63,708 nucleotides of DNA from Promethearchaeota archaeon (GTDB lineage: Archaea > Asgardarchaeota > Lokiarchaeia > Sigyniarchaeales > SOKP01): positions 1-63,708 of the forward strand of contig JAEOTZ010000033.1 in assembly GCA_016839585.1 (NCBI GenBank). Reading direction: 5' to 3'. The notes below the pieces were generated by a model. The model was not told the origin of the DNA, made no database searches, and was given only the letters and a program-made list of their open reading frames with translations. The translations under genes and the position numbers were made by a program. Positions 15,053-62,657 of this stretch are shown piece by piece (position 1 is the stretch's first letter; every line of letters starts with the position of its first letter).

Positions 15053-15171
15053 GGCTCCTATCATCACCCTGGATTTTTGTCTTTTGTTAGTGTAAAAATT
15101 TACACTATGATTTCGCCCTCCTCTCCCTATTATATTTTTGACCTTATACTTAGGTCCTGATGACAGGAGCC
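15053..15171 (+). ncRNA. Candidate multibranched small RNA, copy B of the CCCUGGAUUUUU family
   Basis: Closing helix GGCTCCTATCATCA/TGATGACAGGAGCC (13/14); inner hairpins TAGTGTAAA/TTTACACTA and GACCT/AGGTC; single-stranded motifs shared with copies C and D; TTTATAAA at ~14997. Confidence 0.5.
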
Positions 15172-17078: not shown

Positions 17079-17894
17079 ATGCAGGTTCACGAGATTCGCA
17101 GGATAACAAATAAAATTAAAAGAAAATCGGAAATAGAGGCATTTATAGAATCAGAATTATTTATAAAAGAATTTCCGTTAGATTTAAAAGAGATTATATT
17201 AAAACAGATTAATGAATCTTTCGAAAAATTAAAAAAATCTTTATTTCAAGCACTAAAAATTATTCTATTAAAGTATTCAAATCAAGATTTGATATCAAAA
17301 ACAGCAGAATTCTTTCAAAAACCAATAAGTCAGAAACCTAAGCCTAAAAAAATATTTTTAACTGAGAAAGAAATTGATGATTTTGAACAATTAAAATCTG
17401 ATTTAAATGATTTTTTTTTAACAATAAAAGATTCATATGCACTTAAAGATCATCTAATTATCGGTTGGAATGAATTCTGTGTTAATCAAGGAATAACTCG
17501 TGAGATTCCTTTAAATCCAAAAATCATAAATATTTTTAAACTAAATGAAATTCCAGAAGAAGAATTCGATTCCCCAACTTACAACATTTTAGATCCAATT
17601 TATAATTTTTTTAATATTCTTGATAAAGAGGATATTGCGAGTTTATTAATTGGAAATTCAGTTTGGAAATTATCAATTGATTATTTTAATAAAATAACTC
17701 GTTATAAGGTTATGCCTCATAATGGAGCATTAATAATACTAACTTACTATGAAGGAATATTAGTAGTTATGAAAACATTGAGAATCTGTAAAAACATTCA
17801 AGATGTTAATACTTTAGCAAAAACATATTATAATATTTCACAATATGAAGAATGTATTAATTTTATAATAGAACCTTGGAGGGAGATATTTTAA
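17079..17894 (+). CDS. Hypothetical protein, gene 1 of the helicase operon
   Basis: 271-aa ORF abutting or overlapping the next gene. Confidence 0.75.
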   Translation: MQVHEIRRITNKIKRKSEIEAFIESELFIKEFPLDLKEIILKQINESFEKLKKSLFQALKIILLKYSNQDLISKTAEFFQKPISQKPKPKKIFLTEKEIDDFEQLKSDLNDFFLTIKDSYALKDHLIIGWNEFCVNQGITREIPLNPKIINIFKLNEIPEEEFDSPTYNILDPIYNFFNILDKEDIASLLIGNSVWKLSIDYFNKITRYKVMPHNGALIILTYYEGILVVMKTLRICKNIQDVNTLAKTYYNISQYEECINFIIEPWREIF

Positions 17895-19684
17895 TGTATA
17901 GATTTGATAATGTGCCACTTTCAATAACCTACCCATCTATAAGCCAAATAAAAGAATTTAAACCTTTTACACTAAAATATTCTCCAATTCTACAAATGGA
18001 GGAAATTGCCGAAAATTCTTGTTTAAGAACACCTTATCTAAGAATCTTAAAAGGTTATGACACTTATATCCCAAAAAATAATATTATAATTCCTTGGGAT
18101 TCAAGAGAAAATATTTATCATATGTATTCACATGATAGTAAAGTATTCGAAGAGATAATTCTTTGGATGATAAAATATTGTAATATTGAATTAGGGATAG
18201 AAGAAGAGGAATTTGAAAAAGAAATATGGGAAAACCGGATAAGAAATGAGATCAATGAAAAACATCATGCTATTTCTGATATAGTAATCGAGACATTTAA
18301 AAAATTTATACATTTTGAAGGCGGATTTGAAAAAATTAAAAATAACAAATTATTATTTAATACTTTTGCATTTTCACCTAATATTCCTGTCCCAAGAGAT
18401 ATCAATAATGTTCCTTATACTTTAAGGGAATATGTCAATGAAAAATTAATAAAACATCCAGAAATTAATTTTAAAAATATTCACCATTCTAAATATTTTA
18501 TAGATCCAAGAGCAGATCTTTTTCCTGCATGTGGAAGAGTTCCACTAATAGATTTAACAACAAAAAACATCATTTCCTTTAAATATTTATCCTTAAATTG
18601 GTTTAAGGATTATAATAGTGAAGTTGATATTGATTCTGCTTTTAAATTAGCTTATATATTTCCTGATTTATTTCATTTATGGTTATGGAGATATGCTGTA
18701 CAAAATTTACCAGATAATTTATCAGTAAATTTCAAATTAACTTATATGGACAAACAAATATTTAAAGCAAATAATTTTCCAGAAATTGAGAATTTTTCAG
18801 AATTTTTAAATTATTCTATAAATGTTATAACTCCCGATGGGATATTTAATGATACATTAATAAAGGATTTAGATATTAATATCTCAAAACTTCTAACAGA
18901 GAAGTTAATTGTTACTACATTAACAAATAGTAATAAACCATATCGAGCAAGAAAAATAGATGATATTTGTCCTTTTCATGATTTTAAAGAATATAATTTA
19001 TGTTGCCATCAATATTTCGGTTATAGACAATGTGTGATGAAGGATGTTATCAAATTTCCTCCAAGTAGATTTGAAAGAAATGTTGCTTTGTTTCAAAAAT
19101 TTCTTAGAAATGAATATAATCATTTATCAAAATATTACTACTGGTTGTATCTTACTATGAAAGCTGACGATATAGATCAATGTATTGAGCAAATCGATAT
19201 GTATATTGGGCAGATCTATCGAAATATTGATTTGAAATTAATATATCATGATAAATCACATGAATTTTTTGTACAAGACGCTCCTATTGATGCAGAACAC
19301 GTTACAATAATACCATGGTCTCCTTTTATTTATTCAGAAGATTGGAATCTTAAAGGTATAATAAGAAAAATTAATGAGAATGAATATCAATTTGAAAACA
19401 CAAACAGCTCTTTCATAAGAAATATAAATCTGCTATTATCTTATTTTCCACAGAATACTCCTTTAAATGTTATTCTAATGAAATCATTAGACGAAAAACC
19501 TTTACATCTGATTCAAAAAGAAAAAAGAGCTTTATGGAATATTGTGAAACATTGGCATGATAAAACTGAAGATGAAACAGATGATCAATTTGAAATAAGA
19601 AAAATGCAAGATAAATTAGAAAATAAATCTAAAAGAGCGGGAGTTGCTATATTTGGAGATAATGAGGTAAAATATTTAGAATAA
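17876..19684 (+). CDS. Cas4/Dna2-like Fe-S PD-(D/E)xK nuclease-fold protein, catalytic motif apparently degenerate
   Basis: N-terminal SCLRxxYL and distal CPF...CCH...C cysteines; GRVPLID...IISFK lies where GxxD...ExK is expected. Start may be ATG 17894. Confidence 0.45.
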   Translation: MEGDILMYRFDNVPLSITYPSISQIKEFKPFTLKYSPILQMEEIAENSCLRTPYLRILKGYDTYIPKNNIIIPWDSRENIYHMYSHDSKVFEEIILWMIKYCNIELGIEEEEFEKEIWENRIRNEINEKHHAISDIVIETFKKFIHFEGGFEKIKNNKLLFNTFAFSPNIPVPRDINNVPYTLREYVNEKLIKHPEINFKNIHHSKYFIDPRADLFPACGRVPLIDLTTKNIISFKYLSLNWFKDYNSEVDIDSAFKLAYIFPDLFHLWLWRYAVQNLPDNLSVNFKLTYMDKQIFKANNFPEIENFSEFLNYSINVITPDGIFNDTLIKDLDINISKLLTEKLIVTTLTNSNKPYRARKIDDICPFHDFKEYNLCCHQYFGYRQCVMKDVIKFPPSRFERNVALFQKFLRNEYNHLSKYYYWLYLTMKADDIDQCIEQIDMYIGQIYRNIDLKLIYHDKSHEFFVQDAPIDAEHVTIIPWSPFIYSEDWNLKGIIRKINENEYQFENTNSSFIRNINLLLSYFPQNTPLNVILMKSLDEKPLHLIQKEKRALWNIVKHWHDKTEDETDDQFEIRKMQDKLENKSKRAGVAIFGDNEVKYLE

Positions 19685-19695
19685 AAGGTTTAATT

Positions 19696-21330
19696 ATGTT
19701 AGATAAATATGGTAAAACAGATTTTCAGAGAAAGGTATCTGAAATAATAAAACAGAGACTTAATACAAGCTTCTTTAATAATTACCAAGAAAAAGCAATA
19801 AAAATAATTTGGGGGCTTTCAAAGGAACAAAGAAACCAAAAATCTCAAAAAAATAAAGAAAAAGATACTAGAAAGTATGAACAAAAAACCCTATTTCCAT
19901 TAAATCAAAAAGCTGAACCCGAACCAAATTTTGGTGTAATCCCAGAAAATCTTAAATTTGATCAAAATGTAATTATAAATTCACACCAATATTATTCATC
20001 TGCGGTTATAATTGGTCCACCTGGAACTGGAAAAACAATTGTTATTGTTAACGGAAGTTTATTATTTATTTCTGCTCCAGTATATCGCAGATCAATGCCA
20101 ATAGTTTATATTGGAACACCTACTAATGAATCAGCAAATCGTATATTGCAGGCATTTCATGAATTTTTTGAAAATAATGATATAGAGGATGGACATAAAT
20201 ATGTTAAGAGAGTCTTTCCCAAAAAAGCGAAAAACTTTTTTATATTACCATTAAAGGATTATATACTTGAAAATCCTCGTCCTCCAAATTATCTTCTAAA
20301 AGAATATCAATCGATGATCTCAATGGCTTGGATCTTTATAGGAACTGTATTCCAACTTCAATTATTATCCAAAAAATATTTCATTAATCCCCAAGTAATC
20401 CTTTATGATGAAGCCTCACAATTAACACCACCTGAGATGTATTTACCCTTTTTTTATGAGAATAATCTTTCACCTAATATCAGAGGCTCTTGTCTAGTAG
20501 GAGATAATTGTCAATTATCACCTATTACATCATTTACAGAATTAAGTACTAATGCTATAGATTTCGCAATTAGGAAGCTTCATTTTGGACAACAAAATGT
20601 TCCTATCAAAAGACAAATTATGCTTAGAAAGCAATATAGAATGCATCCAGCAATACGAGATTTATCAATGAAATTCGCTCCAGGGCGCCATATTATAAGA
20701 GATGGAGATAATACAAAACAAAGGTCACATCTATTACAAAATTTTAAAGAATATAATGGTAATTTTTCGAAAAAAATATATAATATCTTAAATCCTCAAA
20801 AGACAGTCGTAATTATTGATACTTCCAATATAGATGATGCGATTAATCAAAGAGTCGGAAGTTCTCGATATAATATTGGAGAAGTAAATATTGTTAGGGG
20901 TCTATTTAAACTAATTCAACACACTTATAATTTTGATGAATCTAATGAAGAATTTTTAAAATTAATTACACCATATAAGAATCAAGCTACACGATTAAAA
21001 TTGATCTATGAAAAAGCAGGCACAGCAGATAGTTTCCAAGGTCAAGAAGCAGATATTGTGCTAATTAGCTTAACATTAACTGATTGTGTTCCATCACCTC
21101 ACATAAGAGATAACCACCGACTGCATGTTATGTTTTCAAGAGCAAGAAAAAAAATGATAATTATTGGGAGAAAAAGCACTTTTGAATCACCCGAAACAAA
21201 TGCCCCCCATATTCGAGATATATTTTATTATAAATATAGTCCTTCAAATCGAAATACTGATTTAGGATATAAACCGGAATACATTATTTCTCTAAAAAAT
21301 GATTTTTATGATTTTTTATCAAAAATTTAA
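19696..21330 (+). CDS. Superfamily 1B (Upf1/Dna2-like) helicase
   Basis: GPPGTGKT, TPTN, DEASQ, LVGDxxQLxP, QYRMHPAI, ITPY, TADSFQGQEADIV and SRAR motifs. Confidence 0.93.
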   Translation: MLDKYGKTDFQRKVSEIIKQRLNTSFFNNYQEKAIKIIWGLSKEQRNQKSQKNKEKDTRKYEQKTLFPLNQKAEPEPNFGVIPENLKFDQNVIINSHQYYSSAVIIGPPGTGKTIVIVNGSLLFISAPVYRRSMPIVYIGTPTNESANRILQAFHEFFENNDIEDGHKYVKRVFPKKAKNFFILPLKDYILENPRPPNYLLKEYQSMISMAWIFIGTVFQLQLLSKKYFINPQVILYDEASQLTPPEMYLPFFYENNLSPNIRGSCLVGDNCQLSPITSFTELSTNAIDFAIRKLHFGQQNVPIKRQIMLRKQYRMHPAIRDLSMKFAPGRHIIRDGDNTKQRSHLLQNFKEYNGNFSKKIYNILNPQKTVVIIDTSNIDDAINQRVGSSRYNIGEVNIVRGLFKLIQHTYNFDESNEEFLKLITPYKNQATRLKLIYEKAGTADSFQGQEADIVLISLTLTDCVPSPHIRDNHRLHVMFSRARKKMIIIGRKSTFESPETNAPHIRDIFYYKYSPSNRNTDLGYKPEYIISLKNDFYDFLSKI

Positions 21331-21348
21331 AAAAAAGGAGGTAATATT

Positions 21349-22050
21349 ATGCCCTCATATAAATTATATAGAATTAAACCTGATTTTAATATTAAAACTT
21401 ACATTTCAAATAATTGGATAGAGGATGCTGTTTTACCTAAAGGATTATCGGAAAACATAAAGAGAAAATTTAATCAAATTAAAAAAAATATTCAAAAATC
21501 ATCAGTTTCTCAGGATGATTCCTTAAAATTAGGATATAAAGCAAAATTAAACTGTGAACATAAGTTAGTTTTTGGTAGTCAAGAAATTTGGATTCCAAAA
21601 TCTATTGAAATAATAAAAAATGAAGATTTGCTTCTCATTCAAAAATTATCCTCTAATATAAACATGGTAATTGAAAGATCATTAGATATTAATATTGTTC
21701 CAATATCTTTTCCTGAAAAGGATTTACTAGGTTTATGGAGAAAATTGAAAAAAAGTGTTGAAAATGATGGAAAACATATTTCTTTACATAGACTAATTAT
21801 TGAAAAAACTTTTTTGGAATCTGATGAAATAAATGAATTGAATATCAGTACTAGCGATGTTTCACAATTGGGATATTTTAAAGATTTAACTTCCAATGCA
21901 AAAAAAATTAAAGTTATAACTATACGAATTAAAGGATTAGCAGAATCAAAGAAAGTTTTTACTGTTAGAATTGCACGTAATCAGATGCAAATCTATGGAA
22001 CTCATCCAACATCGACAATAATTAAATTTTTAGAATACTTTCAAAAATAA
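21349..22050 (+). CDS. Hypothetical protein, gene 4 of the helicase operon
   Basis: 233-aa ORF with a strong GGAGGT SD. Confidence 0.8.
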   Translation: MPSYKLYRIKPDFNIKTYISNNWIEDAVLPKGLSENIKRKFNQIKKNIQKSSVSQDDSLKLGYKAKLNCEHKLVFGSQEIWIPKSIEIIKNEDLLLIQKLSSNINMVIERSLDINIVPISFPEKDLLGLWRKLKKSVENDGKHISLHRLIIEKTFLESDEINELNISTSDVSQLGYFKDLTSNAKKIKVITIRIKGLAESKKVFTVRIARNQMQIYGTHPTSTIIKFLEYFQK

Positions 22051-22814
22051 TAATTAGTGATTTAAAGATTTCTGTTAATAAAAAGAAAAATATTAAATTA
22101 ATTTATTTTTCTCAAGATAATTCAATTATTGTAAAAAGTTGGAATCTAGAGAACCATTTCAAATATGGAATTCCTGGTCGAAATATTAATTCTTGTCTAA
22201 TTTGTGGGCGGAAATCGCAAGATCAAGATTTATCTCCCTGTAAATTCCATCAAAATGTAGAGAATATAGATTTTAAATTGATTTTCGGAGGTTATTTCCA
22301 AACAAATGTAAATTTTAGTCCTCTAAATCCGTTAACTAGACGATTTTTAGAAATGGAAAATTATAGTACAGACTTATTAATCAGGGAATTTATTGAAATT
22401 TTAAAGATACGTTATAAGAAAGAAAAAGGTAATGAAGAATATTTTTGGGGATCATGGGTTCCAACAACAAATACAATAATGATAAAGATTGCAAAATTAC
22501 TATTACAAGAAATAGAATTATCAATTATAAATCCGGAGATTTATTGTAATTTCTCCCCGCAAATAAAGATATATAATCAAGATAGAAAATCAATGGTAAT
22601 TAAAAAATATCAACCTAAAAAAATAAATAACGAATTAAAATATTTAATAGAAAATAAGAATGGCATAATAATTGATGACTTATATCATCATGGTTATACT
22701 ATGGCAAGAATAATGGAATTATTATCTTCTTATAAAGTTAAGAAAATACTAGGAATCGTTATTGTGAGGACGACGGGTAAAAAAGGAATAAAAATAAAAT
22801 ACTTCCCTAAATAA
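22047..22814 (+). CDS. Zn-finger + phosphoribosyltransferase (ComF-like) protein
   Basis: IIIDDLYHHGYTM PRPP-loop-like motif. The frame is open upstream of the listed 22278 start back to 22026 and encodes CLICG...CKFH, so an ATA/ATT start at ~22047-22053 is likely. Confidence 0.7.
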   Translation: MIISDLKISVNKKKNIKLIYFSQDNSIIVKSWNLENHFKYGIPGRNINSCLICGRKSQDQDLSPCKFHQNVENIDFKLIFGGYFQTNVNFSPLNPLTRRFLEMENYSTDLLIREFIEILKIRYKKEKGNEEYFWGSWVPTTNTIMIKIAKLLLQEIELSIINPEIYCNFSPQIKIYNQDRKSMVIKKYQPKKINNELKYLIENKNGIIIDDLYHHGYTMARIMELLSSYKVKKILGIVIVRTTGKKGIKIKYFPK

Positions 22815-22942: not shown

Positions 22943-23380
22943 TCATATTAGATTTTGTGAATTTAAACAATTATTACATAGCACATCGCATTTTTGAATA
23001 TAAGGATTATTTCTCCCAACATGAAAAAACTCAACTTTCTTAAACTTTTCACATAATTCATGGATTTCATCACGTAAAACCAATAAATGCGAGAGATTTT
23101 CCCTATATAATCCATTTATTTGTCGCACAACAAGCTGACTATCAGAAAAAATCTTAATATATCCATTAGTATATTTTATAGCATCTTTTAAGGCATTCAA
23201 AATAGCTAAATACTCTGCTGTGTTATTTGTAGCTTTTCCAATAAAGAAGCTGTTTTAGTGGATTTGAATACCTTCTTTTACAAAAATGAATCCATATGAG
23301 GCAAGACCAGGTTTTCCCCGAGAGGCTCCATCTGTATAAATTGACAAGGTATTTTCCCGTTCTACATTATTTTTTCTCAT
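22943..23380 (-). pseudogene. rnhA: Ribonuclease HI with an in-frame TAA at codon 42
   Basis: YTDGASRGKPG ... IH*NSFFIGKATNNTAEY ... SDSQLVVRQ ... HVGRNN; stop at 23255-23257. Confidence 0.88.
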
Positions 23381-23451
23381 ATAATTTACCTTTATTTCTC
23401 AATGATTTGTATACACCCTATTCTATTCCTTAAATCAATATTAGCATTATT

Positions 23452-23952
23452 TTATCTTTTTTTCATTATTTCAGTAAGTTTACGATATGATAATGGACAG
23501 AAATTACTATTATCCACACTCACATCAAGTTGCATCCCTATTTGAGGTTTTTTTCCATGAGAATGTCCATGAAGACAATAAGAATTATAATTATAATTGT
23601 CAATATTAATAGGATAATGGCAAAGAGTTATCATTTGTCCATTTATTTTAATGACTTTTAAGCATGATACGGTAGCACAAAATTTATATGCTATTTCTAT
23701 AACTTCAAGAGAATCATGATTTCCAATTATGAAATGAATTTTAATATCCTTAAATTTTTCAAAAAATTCTAAAGCTACCTCTGTTTCGAATGTCAAATCT
23801 CCAAGATAATACAGAATATCACCAGTTTTAACACTCTTTTCCAAATTATAAATTATTTGTGAATTCATTTCTTCCACATTTTTAAATGGTCGATTACAAT
23901 ATTTGATAATATTTTTATGTGAAAGATGGTAATCTGCAGTAAACCAAATCAT
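23452..23952 (-). CDS. Calcineurin-like metallophosphoesterase
   Basis: DYHLSH, LGD, GNHD, CHYP and HGHSH motifs. Confidence 0.92.
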   Translation of the reverse strand: MIWFTADYHLSHKNIIKYCNRPFKNVEEMNSQIIYNLEKSVKTGDILYYLGDLTFETEVALEFFEKFKDIKIHFIIGNHDSLEVIEIAYKFCATVSCLKVIKINGQMITLCHYPINIDNYNYNSYCLHGHSHGKKPQIGMQLDVSVDNSNFCPLSYRKLTEIMKKR

Positions 23953-23994
23953 TGAGATTCTCGCTTTAATAATTATACATTCTTTAATTTTAAA

Positions 23995-24999
23995 TTAGAT
24001 GATTAAATGTGAATTATAATCTCGAATACCGTCATAAGTTATTGTGAAAACCGCATTATCATTAGGTAAATGTGGTGCTTCTACAATTTTAGCAATCCGA
24101 GTCGCTCCTCTTCCTTTTAATAATTCAATTTGAATAGATGAGTTATAAAACACAATACTCCCCCCAGCAGGTTTGTTTTTCTTGAGATTAGGATCATAGG
24201 TTACTTGATTTGTAATTACTATTGCTAACTCATTGAAAGATTTAAATAATTTCAATAAGTCAAGCATATGGGTATCTAACCTTTGTTGCCTTTTTAAAAA
24301 AATAGATTCTCCAATGTATTCACTACGGAAGTGACCTATTAAGGAATCTATTATTAATAATTTAATATTCTTCTTCTTAATTATTTTGGACGCTTCTCTT
24401 ACAAGATGTATTTGATGTTCACTGGAATAAGCTCGACCTACAATGATCTTTTTTAACACATGACAATAATCCATATTTAAAGCATCTGCCATCCAAATAA
24501 TTCTTTCAGGACGGAAGTTATTGTCAGTATCTAAATATAATGCACATCCTTCCATGCCTCCCTCGTCATATGGGCGTTGTGCATTTACGCAAAGTTGGTG
24601 AGCAAATTGAGTTTTGCCAGTTCTATATTCTCCAAATATTTGAACTAATTGCCCAGGTTGAATCCCTCCGCCCAATAATTTATCTAATTTTAAACACCCT
24701 GTTGAAATTCCTAAACATTTCTTTAGATTACTCCGATTTTTTTTTTCACAATGGTCTTTCAAAAATTCTTGTGCTTTTTTTATCAATTTAACTCCGATAT
24801 CAAAACTAATGCCTGTTTTTTTAATAACCAATATTGGCGTTATAGCCAATAATTTAACTGTATCAATCTGAGATTTTTGTAACTTATTTTTAATTGATTT
24901 TTTGATTTTTAATTCTTCTAATTTGAAATCTTCTTGATAATTTGATACAGAATTTAGCACTTGGAGTTCATGAGAGCTTAAAATATACATATTAGACAT
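23995..24999 (-). CDS. radA: RadA/Rad51-family recombinase (accessory paralog)
   Basis: ISTGC..LDKLLGGG, GEYRTGKTQ, FRPERI, IIDSLIGHFRSEY, RQQRL, TNQV and PAGG motifs, with an N-terminal HhH-like domain. Confidence 0.92.
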   Translation of the reverse strand: MSNMYILSSHELQVLNSVSNYQEDFKLEELKIKKSIKNKLQKSQIDTVKLLAITPILVIKKTGISFDIGVKLIKKAQEFLKDHCEKKNRSNLKKCLGISTGCLKLDKLLGGGIQPGQLVQIFGEYRTGKTQFAHQLCVNAQRPYDEGGMEGCALYLDTDNNFRPERIIWMADALNMDYCHVLKKIIVGRAYSSEHQIHLVREASKIIKKKNIKLLIIDSLIGHFRSEYIGESIFLKRQQRLDTHMLDLLKLFKSFNELAIVITNQVTYDPNLKKNKPAGGSIVFYNSSIQIELLKGRGATRIAKIVEAPHLPNDNAVFTITYDGIRDYNSHLII

Positions 25000-25046
25000 A
25001 TTTTACGACCACTTTATTTATTAAAATAACTAAATATTTAATTAAT

Positions 25047-25294
25047 CAAACAAAAACCCGCGTTAAACATCTAACAAGACTAGATTTCTTTCATTTCTTC
25101 ATTAATTTCCTAATGTTAAGCTCATTGTTGCAGCTCATCATCAGATCACTCGACAAGTTGTTTCATAGCGATTCGATAATCCACGAGTTATTGTTCTGTT
25201 CTGTGGAAAACCGAGAAACTTCAGACCTCTTGTGGCGGAACACCACAATACCCTATTCTTTATATAATAAAGAAAGGATAGCCGGGTATGTTTG
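25047..25294 (-). ncRNA. Candidate retron msr-msd RNA located downstream of the RT gene
   Basis: Terminal inverted arms CAAACAUACCCG (25294-25283) and CGGGUUUUUGUUUG (25060-25047); unpaired G at 25282; two stem-loops (25280-25249 and 25248-25230); then a ~170-nt structured region. Confidence 0.6.
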
Positions 25295-25340
25295 TTATAT
25301 ATCCATTTTTACACCTAATTGTGATTATGTGACTGAAATG

Positions 25341-26489
25341 TTATTTTGTGATTTTATCTTTAAATAAATATTTAAACTTCAATGATTTTAATTCGAGGAA
25401 TTCTTTGTAAAAATGAAGGTATTTTTCTTTGTTGACACCAATTGCATAACTGCACCGACCTTGGACATTCATCAATTTATTTAGTAGAATGTCTGATAAT
25501 TCTTTCTCACAGTCTACATTTCTTAATTCATGGAGAGCAGCTCGAAGTTTTTTTACCCATTTTCGAGGAAGTGTTAAATGTGATTCATGGGCAATAATTC
25601 CAGTAATCTTCTGTCTTTTTCTTGAAATGAACTCTTTTTGGTAGTTTATATAGAATCCTGATTCTTTAATCAACTCTCTTACTTTAAATCTTAATTCAGT
25701 TGGAACAATTTTCCTTGTTTTACTTGAAAAAGTAATATCATCAGCATACCTAGAGTATTCAAAATTATATTTACGAGCTAATTTATATAAAGCGTAATCC
25801 AATTCGGTTGAAATTAAATTAGAAATATATGGAGAGCTCGGAGCTCCTTGGGGAAGAATGCTCTCAGTATTTTTTAGTAATTTTAACTTCCCATTGGAAT
25901 GTTTACGTGGCAAATATGTAGTTAAATTGGTCAATAAAAACGATATAACTTCTGAATATCCAAATTTCGATTTATACATTTTAAATACATCGGTAAATTT
26001 AATCGTTGGAAAAAAGTTTTTTAAATCCAAGATGTAGATAACTTTAAAACCGTAATGTTGTTCTGCATTTTTTATATTAGATTTTGTTGGGATAAAACCC
26101 ATAGCAAATCGAGAAGATTTTACATTTAAAAGAATACCTTCATAAATTTTTTTTTGAATCTTTTTTAACTCGTCAACTGGAGTGATAATATATCGTTTTC
26201 CACCTGCCTTTTTTTTTATTGGAAATATCTTATATGAAGATTCAGCAGGAACAATTTCTTCTTTTACACTCCCATATCTTATTAAAGTTGAAAATTTTAT
26301 ATCCAGAAATTCTGCTAAATCAAAAGGTCTGATAAATATAGGTAATTTATGTGTGTTCAGAAATGTAAAATTCGGAACAATATCATTCATATATCTCCCA
26401 AATTGAGATAAATAATGCTCTGAAAAATGAAATCCACACCTTACCAAATAGTTTTGATGATATTGCGTTATGGTGGTCAAGATAATCAA
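25341..26489 (-). CDS. Retron-type reverse transcriptase
   Basis: IKKKAGGKRYI, NAEQH (retron NAxxH), LDLKNFFPTI, LPQGAPSSPYISN, YSRYADDITFS and QKITGI (retron VTG-like). Confidence 0.88.
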   Translation of the reverse strand: MIILTTITQYHQNYLVRCGFHFSEHYLSQFGRYMNDIVPNFTFLNTHKLPIFIRPFDLAEFLDIKFSTLIRYGSVKEEIVPAESSYKIFPIKKKAGGKRYIITPVDELKKIQKKIYEGILLNVKSSRFAMGFIPTKSNIKNAEQHYGFKVIYILDLKNFFPTIKFTDVFKMYKSKFGYSEVISFLLTNLTTYLPRKHSNGKLKLLKNTESILPQGAPSSPYISNLISTELDYALYKLARKYNFEYSRYADDITFSSKTRKIVPTELRFKVRELIKESGFYINYQKEFISRKRQKITGIIAHESHLTLPRKWVKKLRAALHELRNVDCEKELSDILLNKLMNVQGRCSYAIGVNKEKYLHFYKEFLELKSLKFKYLFKDKITK

Positions 26490-28653: not shown

Positions 28654-28733
28654 CAAAAGACAAAAATCCAGGGCGTTAAGACCATTTCTTAGACTAAGAA
28701 TAATGCCTCTCCGAAAGTTGAAATGGTTCTTAA
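28654..28733 (-). ncRNA. Candidate structured RNA, copy C of the CCCUGGAUUUUU family
   Basis: Helix TTAAGAACCATTTC/GAAATGGTCTTAA followed by CGCCCTGGATTTTTGTCTTTTG; 20/20 identity with 15067-15086. Confidence 0.45.
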
Positions 28734-59717: not shown

Positions 59718-60015
59718 GATTTTAGATTTTGAAGAGAAAAAGAAAGAAAAACTTAAAGAATCTGAAGAAATCTTTAATATCATTGATAATGCTGAAAGAA
59801 TGGCAAAAGAATACGAAAAAGAAAGAAAAAAGGGTAGAATCCTTCATCTTGATTGTCCTTATGAAAAAATAATAGAAATTTACAAAAAAGCTGAAAAAAA
59901 ATTAGAAAATATTGGTTGGAAAGAAGAGTCAAGTAAATTGTTTGATTCAATTGAATATTATAACGACAAGCTTAAAAAAGATAAAAGATTAAGAGAAATT
60001 GAAGCGAAAAAATAA
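59718..60015 (+). pseudogene. Partial duplicate of the 3' half of 61989-62657
   Basis: 59718-60004 aligns without gaps to 62348-62634. Confidence 0.85.
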
Positions 60016-61988: not shown

Positions 61989-62657
61989 ATGGGTGAAAAA
62001 TTCAAAAGTCAAGTAGTCGCAGAAATGATAAATAATGTGGAAAAAATCGCCAGAGATTATGAGTTAGGCATTAAAAAAAACAAATTTGAAATAAAGTGTC
62101 CTTACCCAAAAATAATTCAAACCTATGAAAGCATAATACAAATGCTCATTAATTACGGTTGGAATGAGCAAGCCATGATTTACAATAATCAAATTAAATT
62201 TTATCAAGAAAAACTAGAGAAAGATAAAAAATTGCGCATAATTGAAGTTCAAAAAGTGCAAAAACAAAAAGAAATTGAAGGATTATATAAAAATAAGGAG
62301 ATAGATACAATTAAAGCAGTAATTCTCTCACTCAATAGAGAGGAGAAGATTTTAGATTTTGAAGAGAAAAAGAAAGAAAAAATTAAAGAGTCTGAAGAAA
62401 TCTTTAATATGATTAGTAATGCTGAAAGAATGGCAAAAGAATATGAAAAGGAAATAAATAAGGGTAGGATCCTTCATCTTGATTGTCCGTATGAAAAAAT
62501 AATAGAAATTTACAAAGAAGTTAAAAAAAGATTAGAAAGTATTGGTTGGAAAGAAGAGTCGAATAAATTGATTGATTCAATCAGATATTATAATGACAAA
62601 CTTGAAAAAGATAAAAGATTAAGAGAAATTGAAGAGAGAAAATTAGCTAAAGAATAA
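61989..62657 (+). CDS. Helical protein with two internal repeats
   Basis: Repeated A.xYE...CPY.KII.xY...GW.E...xY..KLEKDK.LR unit. Confidence 0.8.
   Translation: MGEKFKSQVVAEMINNVEKIARDYELGIKKNKFEIKCPYPKIIQTYESIIQMLINYGWNEQAMIYNNQIKFYQEKLEKDKKLRIIEVQKVQKQKEIEGLYKNKEIDTIKAVILSLNREEKILDFEEKKKEKIKESEEIFNMISNAERMAKEYEKEINKGRILHLDCPYEKIIEIYKEVKKRLESIGWKEESNKLIDSIRYYNDKLEKDKRLREIEERKLAKE

Follow-up and report, generated by a model that had tools for sequence, protein, structure and literature searches.

An XIII-related retron of a Lokiarchaeia-like archaeon that appears to travel with a RadA paralog and a small phosphoesterase

We have found that a contig of a Promethearchaeota archaeon carries a retron accompanied by two protein partners. 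The stretch (contig JAEOTZ010000033.1 of assembly GCA_016839585.1, all 63,708 nt of it, hereafter the window; C16 in our labelling) belongs to a 3.45-Mb genome that is 99% complete, and its minus strand encodes a retron-type reverse transcriptase (RT), a noncoding RNA (ncRNA) just downstream of it, a RadA paralog that we refer to as RadA*, and a metallophosphoesterase (MPE). As shown by comparison of sequences across loci, these four parts travel together and the three genes are kept by purifying selection (dN/dS at most 0.28). Labels beginning with L, G, C and P denote the loci, genomes, contigs and proteins compared. To judge from these comparisons, the system looks more like a decoy or an alarm than a gene-editing device.

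Profile evidence places the RT with retrons rather than with group II, diversity-generating or unknown-group (UG) RTs. It matches RVT_1 (1e-21); its best PADLOC model is RT_XIII (1e-82, the next 8e-66), and its top 25 PADLOC matches are all retron models; NCBIfam gives 2e-56 for retron against 6e-13 for group II; and the Ec86 RT is its best PDB match. An earlier reading of this DNA, made from the letters alone (the sequence-only reading), had recognised retron hallmarks and called for a comparison with group II; the motifs NAEQH, YADD and ITG and the profile scores bear it out, and all its coordinates hold. N108, A109, H112, YADD, T263 and G264 are invariant among 10 clade members. The N-terminal extension is conserved among homologs, the DNA homology with genome G129 starts exactly at 26489, and the dN/dS of the RT is 0.12-0.21. 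Quick trees and profile scores, rather than a full reference tree, place the RT in a clade of 14-15 sequences (SH-aLRT 99) that stands apart from the SWIM-linked RTs and lacks resolution at its base. All clade members of known origin are Lokiarchaeia-like, a phylum-wide search returned no further member outside the class, and no SWIM gene was seen beside those members whose context was read. Several clade RTs carry N-terminal fusions (L027:715-2460, L051:10126-12372, P0259 and P0263) that are varied and unrelated. One type is a hydrophobic stretch that may include a PH-like domain; another matches DUF2240 weakly and has a second domain; a third combines a metallophosphoesterase with leucine-rich repeats. 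We considered P0263, the RT fused to a metallophosphoesterase, as a Rosetta-stone case and rejected it, since the fused domain has no significant similarity to the window MPE.

The RNA behind the RT has a genuine msr-msd layout, as confirmed by its predicted fold and by covariation. The sequence-only reading had described inverted arms, an unpaired G25282, two stem-loops and a template of about 170 nt, and each of these stands (Table 1). The a2 arm starts at 25296, 44 nt past the RT stop; the RNA fold has a z-score of -4.1, with 0 of 200 shuffles as good; and RT relatives with identities between 96% and about 40% have a homologous RNA behind them. In an alignment of 12 copies, 98% of cells in the a1/a2 helix and the two msr stems are paired, and 6 of 17 pairs show two-sided changes, counts that are inflated by the relatedness of the copies; none of 500 shuffles scored as high, and slid controls fall to 28-56%. 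Covariation of the arms and stems, which had been proposed as a check, thus recurs among homologs. G25282 is invariant in the 12 clade RNAs, and in 16 once canonical type XIII RNAs are added, and the opposing G25061 is invariant in the aligned clade RNAs. Ec86 serves as the model for where a cDNA starts relative to the opposing G; because the invariant G25061 would be that G, we place the predicted cDNA start at 25062. The plus-strand sequence foreseen for the cDNA is retained, and its start moves from the approximate 25061 given earlier. Stem-loop b is homologous to the type XIII GGCGUUGCGCC hairpin, which precedes several bacterial type XIII RTs and shares their strand, and the msr core aligns with SWIM-linked RNAs. 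Rfam returned no relevant match.

Two other interpretations of this RNA were rejected. An antisense reading fits poorly because the RT strand gives 21 G-U against 4 A-C cells, each of the six RadA-linked RNAs folds better in the sense direction, the invariant G comes after a2 solely on the RT strand, and the bacterial type XIII hairpin is also on the RT strand; folding energy alone slightly favours the antisense strand in L026, L027, L048, L049 and L054. A diversity-generating retroelement was dismissed since the RNA region has no second copy in the genome or the window. The position of the RNA after the RT had been regarded as unusual, and retron RNAs have been described as "frequently upstream" (10.1101/2024.01.25.577267). 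We find the downstream layout to be common to other Asgard retrons and to one Bacillota (Peptostreptococcaceae) type XIII retron: canonical WGR/ARM-SWIM-RT retrons of the same order carry the RNA after the RT, often in 2-3 copies. Such tandem msr-msd copies lie 3' of the RT at L053:10057-10634, L056:2422-2746, L059:10189-10752 and L060:9105-9678, all canonical Asgard type XIII. At L055:5548-11121 (G154:C7) a type XIII RNA lies about 3.2 kb downstream of its RT, with a SIR2-TPR gene between, and the end of this RNA is close to a convergent phosphoesterase.

The order RT-ncRNA-radA-MPE is found in the window, L030, L031/L032, L046 (another genus, RT 76% identical), L067 and L244, and the flanks change on both sides; parts of the cassette run up to contig ends in L023, L024, L033 and L068. 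DNA shared with L046 extends from 26489 to 23463, that is, from the RT start to the MPE end. The synteny that the sequence-only reading had proposed to look for therefore recurs, in about six loci and down to 43% RT identity. The next deeper readable branch is L244 (RT 43%, RadA 40% and MPE about 50% identical), whose RT identity falls below the 60% cut-off of Mestre et al. for functional association; at L244:338-4677 the order is an RPA-like gene, an unknown gene of 127 aa, the RT, a candidate RNA, a RadA paralog and MPE, with a ParB gene further on, and the RT frame reads through the candidate RNA. We note a further arrangement at L049:8066-11715 (G137:C63), where a clade RT and its RNA precede an extra full-length RPA copy, which comes about 30 nt beyond a1 and is 44% identical to the genome's other RPA; here MPE is transcribed divergently, and the predicted cDNA opens with 44 unpaired T-rich bases.

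RadA* is 45-50% identical to host RadA, with a dN/dS of 0.15-0.28. The catalytic Glu after the Walker A strand has become Asp (Asp159 in the window) and FxxA is lost in all 7 close RadA* copies (host RadA has FKSA); in all 6 copies that reach there GRG of L1 is replaced, L2 is shortened, and the conserved His and one site-II Arg are lost as well. In the window L1 reads GES and L2 is three residues shorter. The N-terminal LPGVG motif is lost. At 12 of 13 positions the FxxA-accepting pocket is the same as in host RadA, and a structure model (pTM 0.70) has the RadA fold, with the FxxA region as a low-confidence linker. RadA from which FxxA has been removed is a monomer that still binds ATP and an FxxA peptide (PMC5117717). 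From the loss of FxxA, the kept pocket and the monomeric state of RadA without FxxA, we predict that RadA* would end a filament or stay a monomer rather than build filaments. Of 154 genomes examined in the order, 2 contain the N-terminus of RadA*, each time behind this retron, and among the loci compared and those 154 genomes we found no RadA* without retron remains. At L064:526-1211 a truncated RadA* of 189 aa is preceded by no more of the RNA than its 3' part, and no RT is present; a gene for a 1977-aa protein follows. The locus is apparently a cassette remnant.

Wherever a locus with a full-length radA extends far enough (7 of 7), the MPE gene follows radA; its dN/dS is 0.14-0.28. The sequence-only reading had linked it to the debranching enzyme Dbr1; sequence comparison does not support this, as the sole PDB match of MPE is aq_1665 (1xm7), and neither a Dbr1 chain in the PDB nor the Dbr1 family gave a match. 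Across the order the MPE family occupies 20 places, six of them no more than about 5 kb from a retron RT, where both the arrangement and the RT lineage vary, and one more at 11 kb; the family is enriched near retrons and not exclusive to them. At L060:16041-16589 (G129:C21) a family member heads a canonical WGR-SWIM-RT operon, co-oriented and 108 nt before the first gene, with the RT frameshifted. Gaps between the cassette genes of the window are 42-71 nt. rnhA, which had been counted as a member, is a neighbour and not a core part: it follows MPE in 2 of 7 informative loci, the window, where the stop codon already reported is present, and L031, where it is intact, and it is not found after MPE in L030, L033, L046, L067 or L244. 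Two relatives share a block of DNA with the window that does not include rnhA. Another full-length rnhA copy exists elsewhere in the genome; one full-length and several partial rnhA-like copies lie on two small contigs (G000:C68:3302-7289, locus L063, and C18).

Folding of the predicted cDNA gives a further contrast. We took the stretch that separates the second hairpin from the opposing G and folded its complement under DNA parameters, with an assumed 3' end. Over its 169 nt the window msd has -39.1 kcal/mol as RNA and -9.2 kcal/mol as DNA (DNA z-score +1.0), and the long stable msd hairpin that is present in RadA-less relatives is absent from the window's predicted cDNA; among the retron features that sequence can show, this is the one that the cassette lacks. 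The energies are -0.04 to -0.10 kcal/mol/nt for seven RadA-linked loci and the RPA-linked L049; for four clade members that lack such partners they are -0.14 to -0.20, and for seven SWIM-linked loci -0.11 to -0.23, and neither range overlaps that of the RadA/RPA group. The nominal p of 0.0003 for this contrast overstates it, because about three lineages are involved, the cDNA end is assumed and the L244 RNA may be decaying. A weakly folded cDNA fits the pattern expected if the multicopy single-stranded DNA (msDNA) were the ligand of a partner that binds single-stranded DNA. The msd has no homolog elsewhere in the 99%-complete genome, and across loci it ranges from 57 to 184 nt with little sequence conservation; both observations disfavour a role as recombination donor.

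Table 1. Features of the cassette and its neighbour gene, in window coordinates
Feature	Position	Strand	Remarks
Retron-type RT	25341..26489	-	382 aa from TTG 26489; 349 aa from ATG 26390
RT motifs	NAxxH 26069-26055; YADD 25748-25737; ITG 25607-25599	-	NAEQH in region X; ITG in region Y
msr-msd ncRNA	25046..25297	-	RT strand, downstream of RT
a2 arm (5' inverted repeat)	25283..25296	-	pairs with a1; two-sided changes at 3 of 5 inner pairs
Predicted branching G	25282	-	unpaired, directly after a2 helix
msr stem-loop a	25249..25280	-	upper stem of variable length
msr stem-loop b, GGUGUUCCGCC core	25231..25247	-	100% of cells paired; two-sided changes at two pairs
msd template	25062..25230	-	169 nt, template-like; predicted cDNA is plus-strand sequence from 25062
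Opposing G (25061) and a1 arm (25060-25047)	25047..25061	-	G invariant
RadA paralog (RadA*)	23995..24999	-	Walker A K/T and Walker B D kept
Calcineurin-like MPE, aq_1665 type	23452..23952	-	metal-binding motifs intact
rnhA, apparent pseudogene	22943..23380	-	in-frame TAA 23255-23257 in this assembly (possible assembly error); neighbour

Housekeeping genes fill the first 10 kb of the window, and the part beyond has the look of a mobile element integrated in a Lokiarchaeia-like archaeon, a description that we infer from gene content, as neither an integrase nor an attachment site was identified in the window. Besides the cassette it holds second copies of the genes for TFIIB, Cdc6 and a pilus-type ATPase, a prepilin peptidase and many small open reading frames (ORFs), and it is mosaic with elements of other genomes. 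The named homologs of the window RadA are from Promethearchaeota or Lokiarchaeota, the DNA is also present in marine sediment metagenomes, with no RNA data set listed among the sequencing runs that contain it, and no close viral relative was found. G023:C7 and G008:C116 share, at about 80% identity, a module at 30201-51962 with the second Cdc6 and pilus-type ATPase (other copies on C15), the prepilin peptidase and a ThiF gene; in neither was the retron found. A perfect 20-nt inverted repeat (15067-15086 and 28654-28673, 13.6 kb apart), possibly recombination or binding sites, encloses a five-gene operon and the retron cassette; the region of its left copy also matches L031 and L240. The operon (17079-22814, plus strand) encodes proteins of 271 aa and 602 aa, an SF1 helicase, a 233-aa protein and a phosphoribosyltransferase (PRTase), and converges on the cassette; a distant version (20-34% identity) lies near the L030 cassette in opposite orientation, and in L031 its last two genes are found at the corresponding site. 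We weighed whether the convergent PRTase (22278-22814) might be a type III effector and decided against it, as it is one of the five genes of this separate operon and falls outside the shared block. A 296-nt direct repeat (59718-60013 and 62348-62643, 91% identical) overlaps a 222-aa ORF near a Ras-like GTPase gene. A promoter and terminator scan with bacterial models, the host being archaeal, gave results at chance level.

How might such a cassette work? The best explanation, to which we give about even odds, is that RT, msDNA and RadA* form a decoy or sensor that is built on a RadA paralog and baited with single-stranded DNA. By analogy with known retron biochemistry, the RT would prime on the 2'-OH of G25282 and copy from 25062 toward the msr hairpins, and host RNase H would trim the RNA. 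The DNA product would be largely single-stranded and could be the ligand of RadA*, which would make no normal filament but accept the FxxA motif of another RadA-binding protein. The resulting RT-msDNA-RadA* particle could act as a switch, like other retrons, by imitating a recombination intermediate; an invader's single-stranded-DNA-binding, nuclease or anti-RadA protein would disturb it, and the released RadA* might cap host RadA filaments, or the phosphoesterase might be activated. More broadly, an Asgard retron lineage may have repeatedly recruited duplicated host RadA or RPA and evolved an unfolded msDNA ligand, as a decoy of a recombination intermediate guarding the archaeal-eukaryotic Rad51/RPA machinery against viruses, a proposal that we hold as tentative and rather doubtful; we found no such retron mechanism described. 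Several observations weigh against a decoy. No known effector or toxin domain was recognised in the cassette partners with PADLOC profiles, in line with the earlier remark that no toxic effector was evident. The folding contrast comes down to about three independent lineages and hinges on the assumed cDNA end. The deep link is a single contig, L244, with a weak RNA (model E-value 0.047, fold z-score -1.3) in the read-through tail of the RT; its RadA keeps the catalytic Glu, the His and the FRSG motif, with L1 changed, and its putative kinship to RadA* carries a long-branch warning. The MPE family is mostly away from RTs, and 11 fetched MPE loci have none. Finally, five clade relatives (L026, L027, L048, L054 and L051) have no adjoining radA, so the RT does not need radA.

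These last points are equally those that would be expected if the retron stood alone and radA, RPA and MPE were a mobile-element block that the retron had entered once and hitch-hiked with since, an explanation that we regard as unlikely, though the locus does lie in a mosaic, apparently integrated element (Cdc6, TFIIB, pilus-type ATPase), stand-alone retron cassettes are known (PMC7736814), and the MPE of L031 comes from another lineage (dS 1.5, against 0.15 for the RT). Hitch-hiking sits less easily with a gene order that is kept at 43% RT identity when all flanks have changed, with the failure to find RadA* away from retron remains, with a cDNA fold that tracks partner type, and with the sister elements G023 and G008, which share the backbone and in which RT, radA and MPE were not found. 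The sequence-only reading had instead pictured msDNA that is made, trimmed, debranched and recombined by RadA into a target, a scheme that would amount to natural recombineering or to a mobility aid. The RT-radA-MPE link is indeed conserved, the predicted cDNA is long (107-184 nt) and weakly folded, the RadA of L244 still has the catalytic Glu and FRSG, with an RPA gene upstream of it, and ATP hydrolysis is reported to be dispensable for strand exchange (PMC9950535). Yet RadA* is degenerate (FxxA gone, Asp in place of Glu, L1 and L2 altered) and the msd, so variable in length and poorly conserved, has no target in the nearly complete genome, which makes recombination by RadA* very improbable; nor does that scheme fit an rnhA that is not a member and a phosphoesterase without a Dbr1 match. 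RadA* might also be an accessory subunit or regulator, like iRadA or RadB, that binds the RT or host RadA and tunes recombination or the element's lifecycle with no part in defence. Inactive RadA homologs do partner polymerases through an FxxA-type pocket (PMC11791011), that pocket is conserved in RadA*, and some retrons may have been domesticated for non-defence roles (PMC7736814). We think this improbable, as it leaves the retained priming G and template unexplained, and RadA* is much less eroded than a typical accessory subunit, given that its Walker motifs and its 45-50% identity to host RadA are kept.

Retrons make up about 4% of archaeal RTs (PMC8632793), and a RadA/Rad51 paralog is listed for none of the 13 retron types (PMC7736814, Table 1). 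Our literature search, whose reach excluded most subscription papers, found no paper that ties a retron to such a paralog, and the conserved pairing of a retron with an altered RadA and a small phosphoesterase appears to be new in that no description of it was found. If the link is functional, it would represent a new class of retron partner and show an Asgard immune system made out of the Rad51/RPA machinery, which eukaryotes inherited. A further and directly testable idea is that msDNA structure is tuned to the protein partner, and a retron that copies a poorly folded template of 110-180 nt placed after the RT may serve for donor DNA production.

The system resembles several known ones in part. 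With canonical archaeal RadA/Rad51, RadA* shares the fold, Walker A and B and the acceptor pocket, whereas FxxA, the catalytic Glu, the L1 Arg, the conserved His, one site-II Arg and LPGVG are altered. In the PolB2 mutasome (PMC11791011) a degenerate RadA homolog, iRadA, likewise sits beside a polymerase, with an FxxA-type pocket as the likely docking site; here the polymerase role falls to a retron RT that has a template RNA, PPB2 is absent, RadA* keeps its Walker motifs, and contact between RT and RadA* is putative. Stand-alone (msr-msd)-RT cassettes of clades 2 and 11 (PMC7736814) have no classical toxin, and L026, L048 and L054 resemble them; the window RT is in a different clade and has two genes conserved behind its RNA. 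The closest likeness is to type XIII (RT clade 10; Mx162, Mx65, Ne144 and Sa163; Mestre et al. 2020, PMC7736814), which provides the best RT profile match and an msr hairpin and branch-G context homologous to those of the window RNA; most of the closest bacterial RT relatives retrieved are SWIM-linked. Type XIII has a SWIM/DEDE partner (cluster 114) and often a WGR-HEAT/ARM partner, and the window cassette has neither: no window neighbour matches SWIM_XIII, on which other Asgard loci score 1e-168, and no window ORF falls in the SWIM cluster. Relative to the type XIII profile the window RT is shorter, with about 100 N-terminal positions missing; it belongs to its own clade, its partners are a RadA paralog and a phosphoesterase, and its predicted msDNA lacks the long stable hairpin of type XIII msDNA. 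Because the SWIM partner is missing and the RT tree is inconclusive we do not file the system under type XIII itself, and from its sequence it is best called an XIII-related Asgard variant with RadA and phosphoesterase partners.

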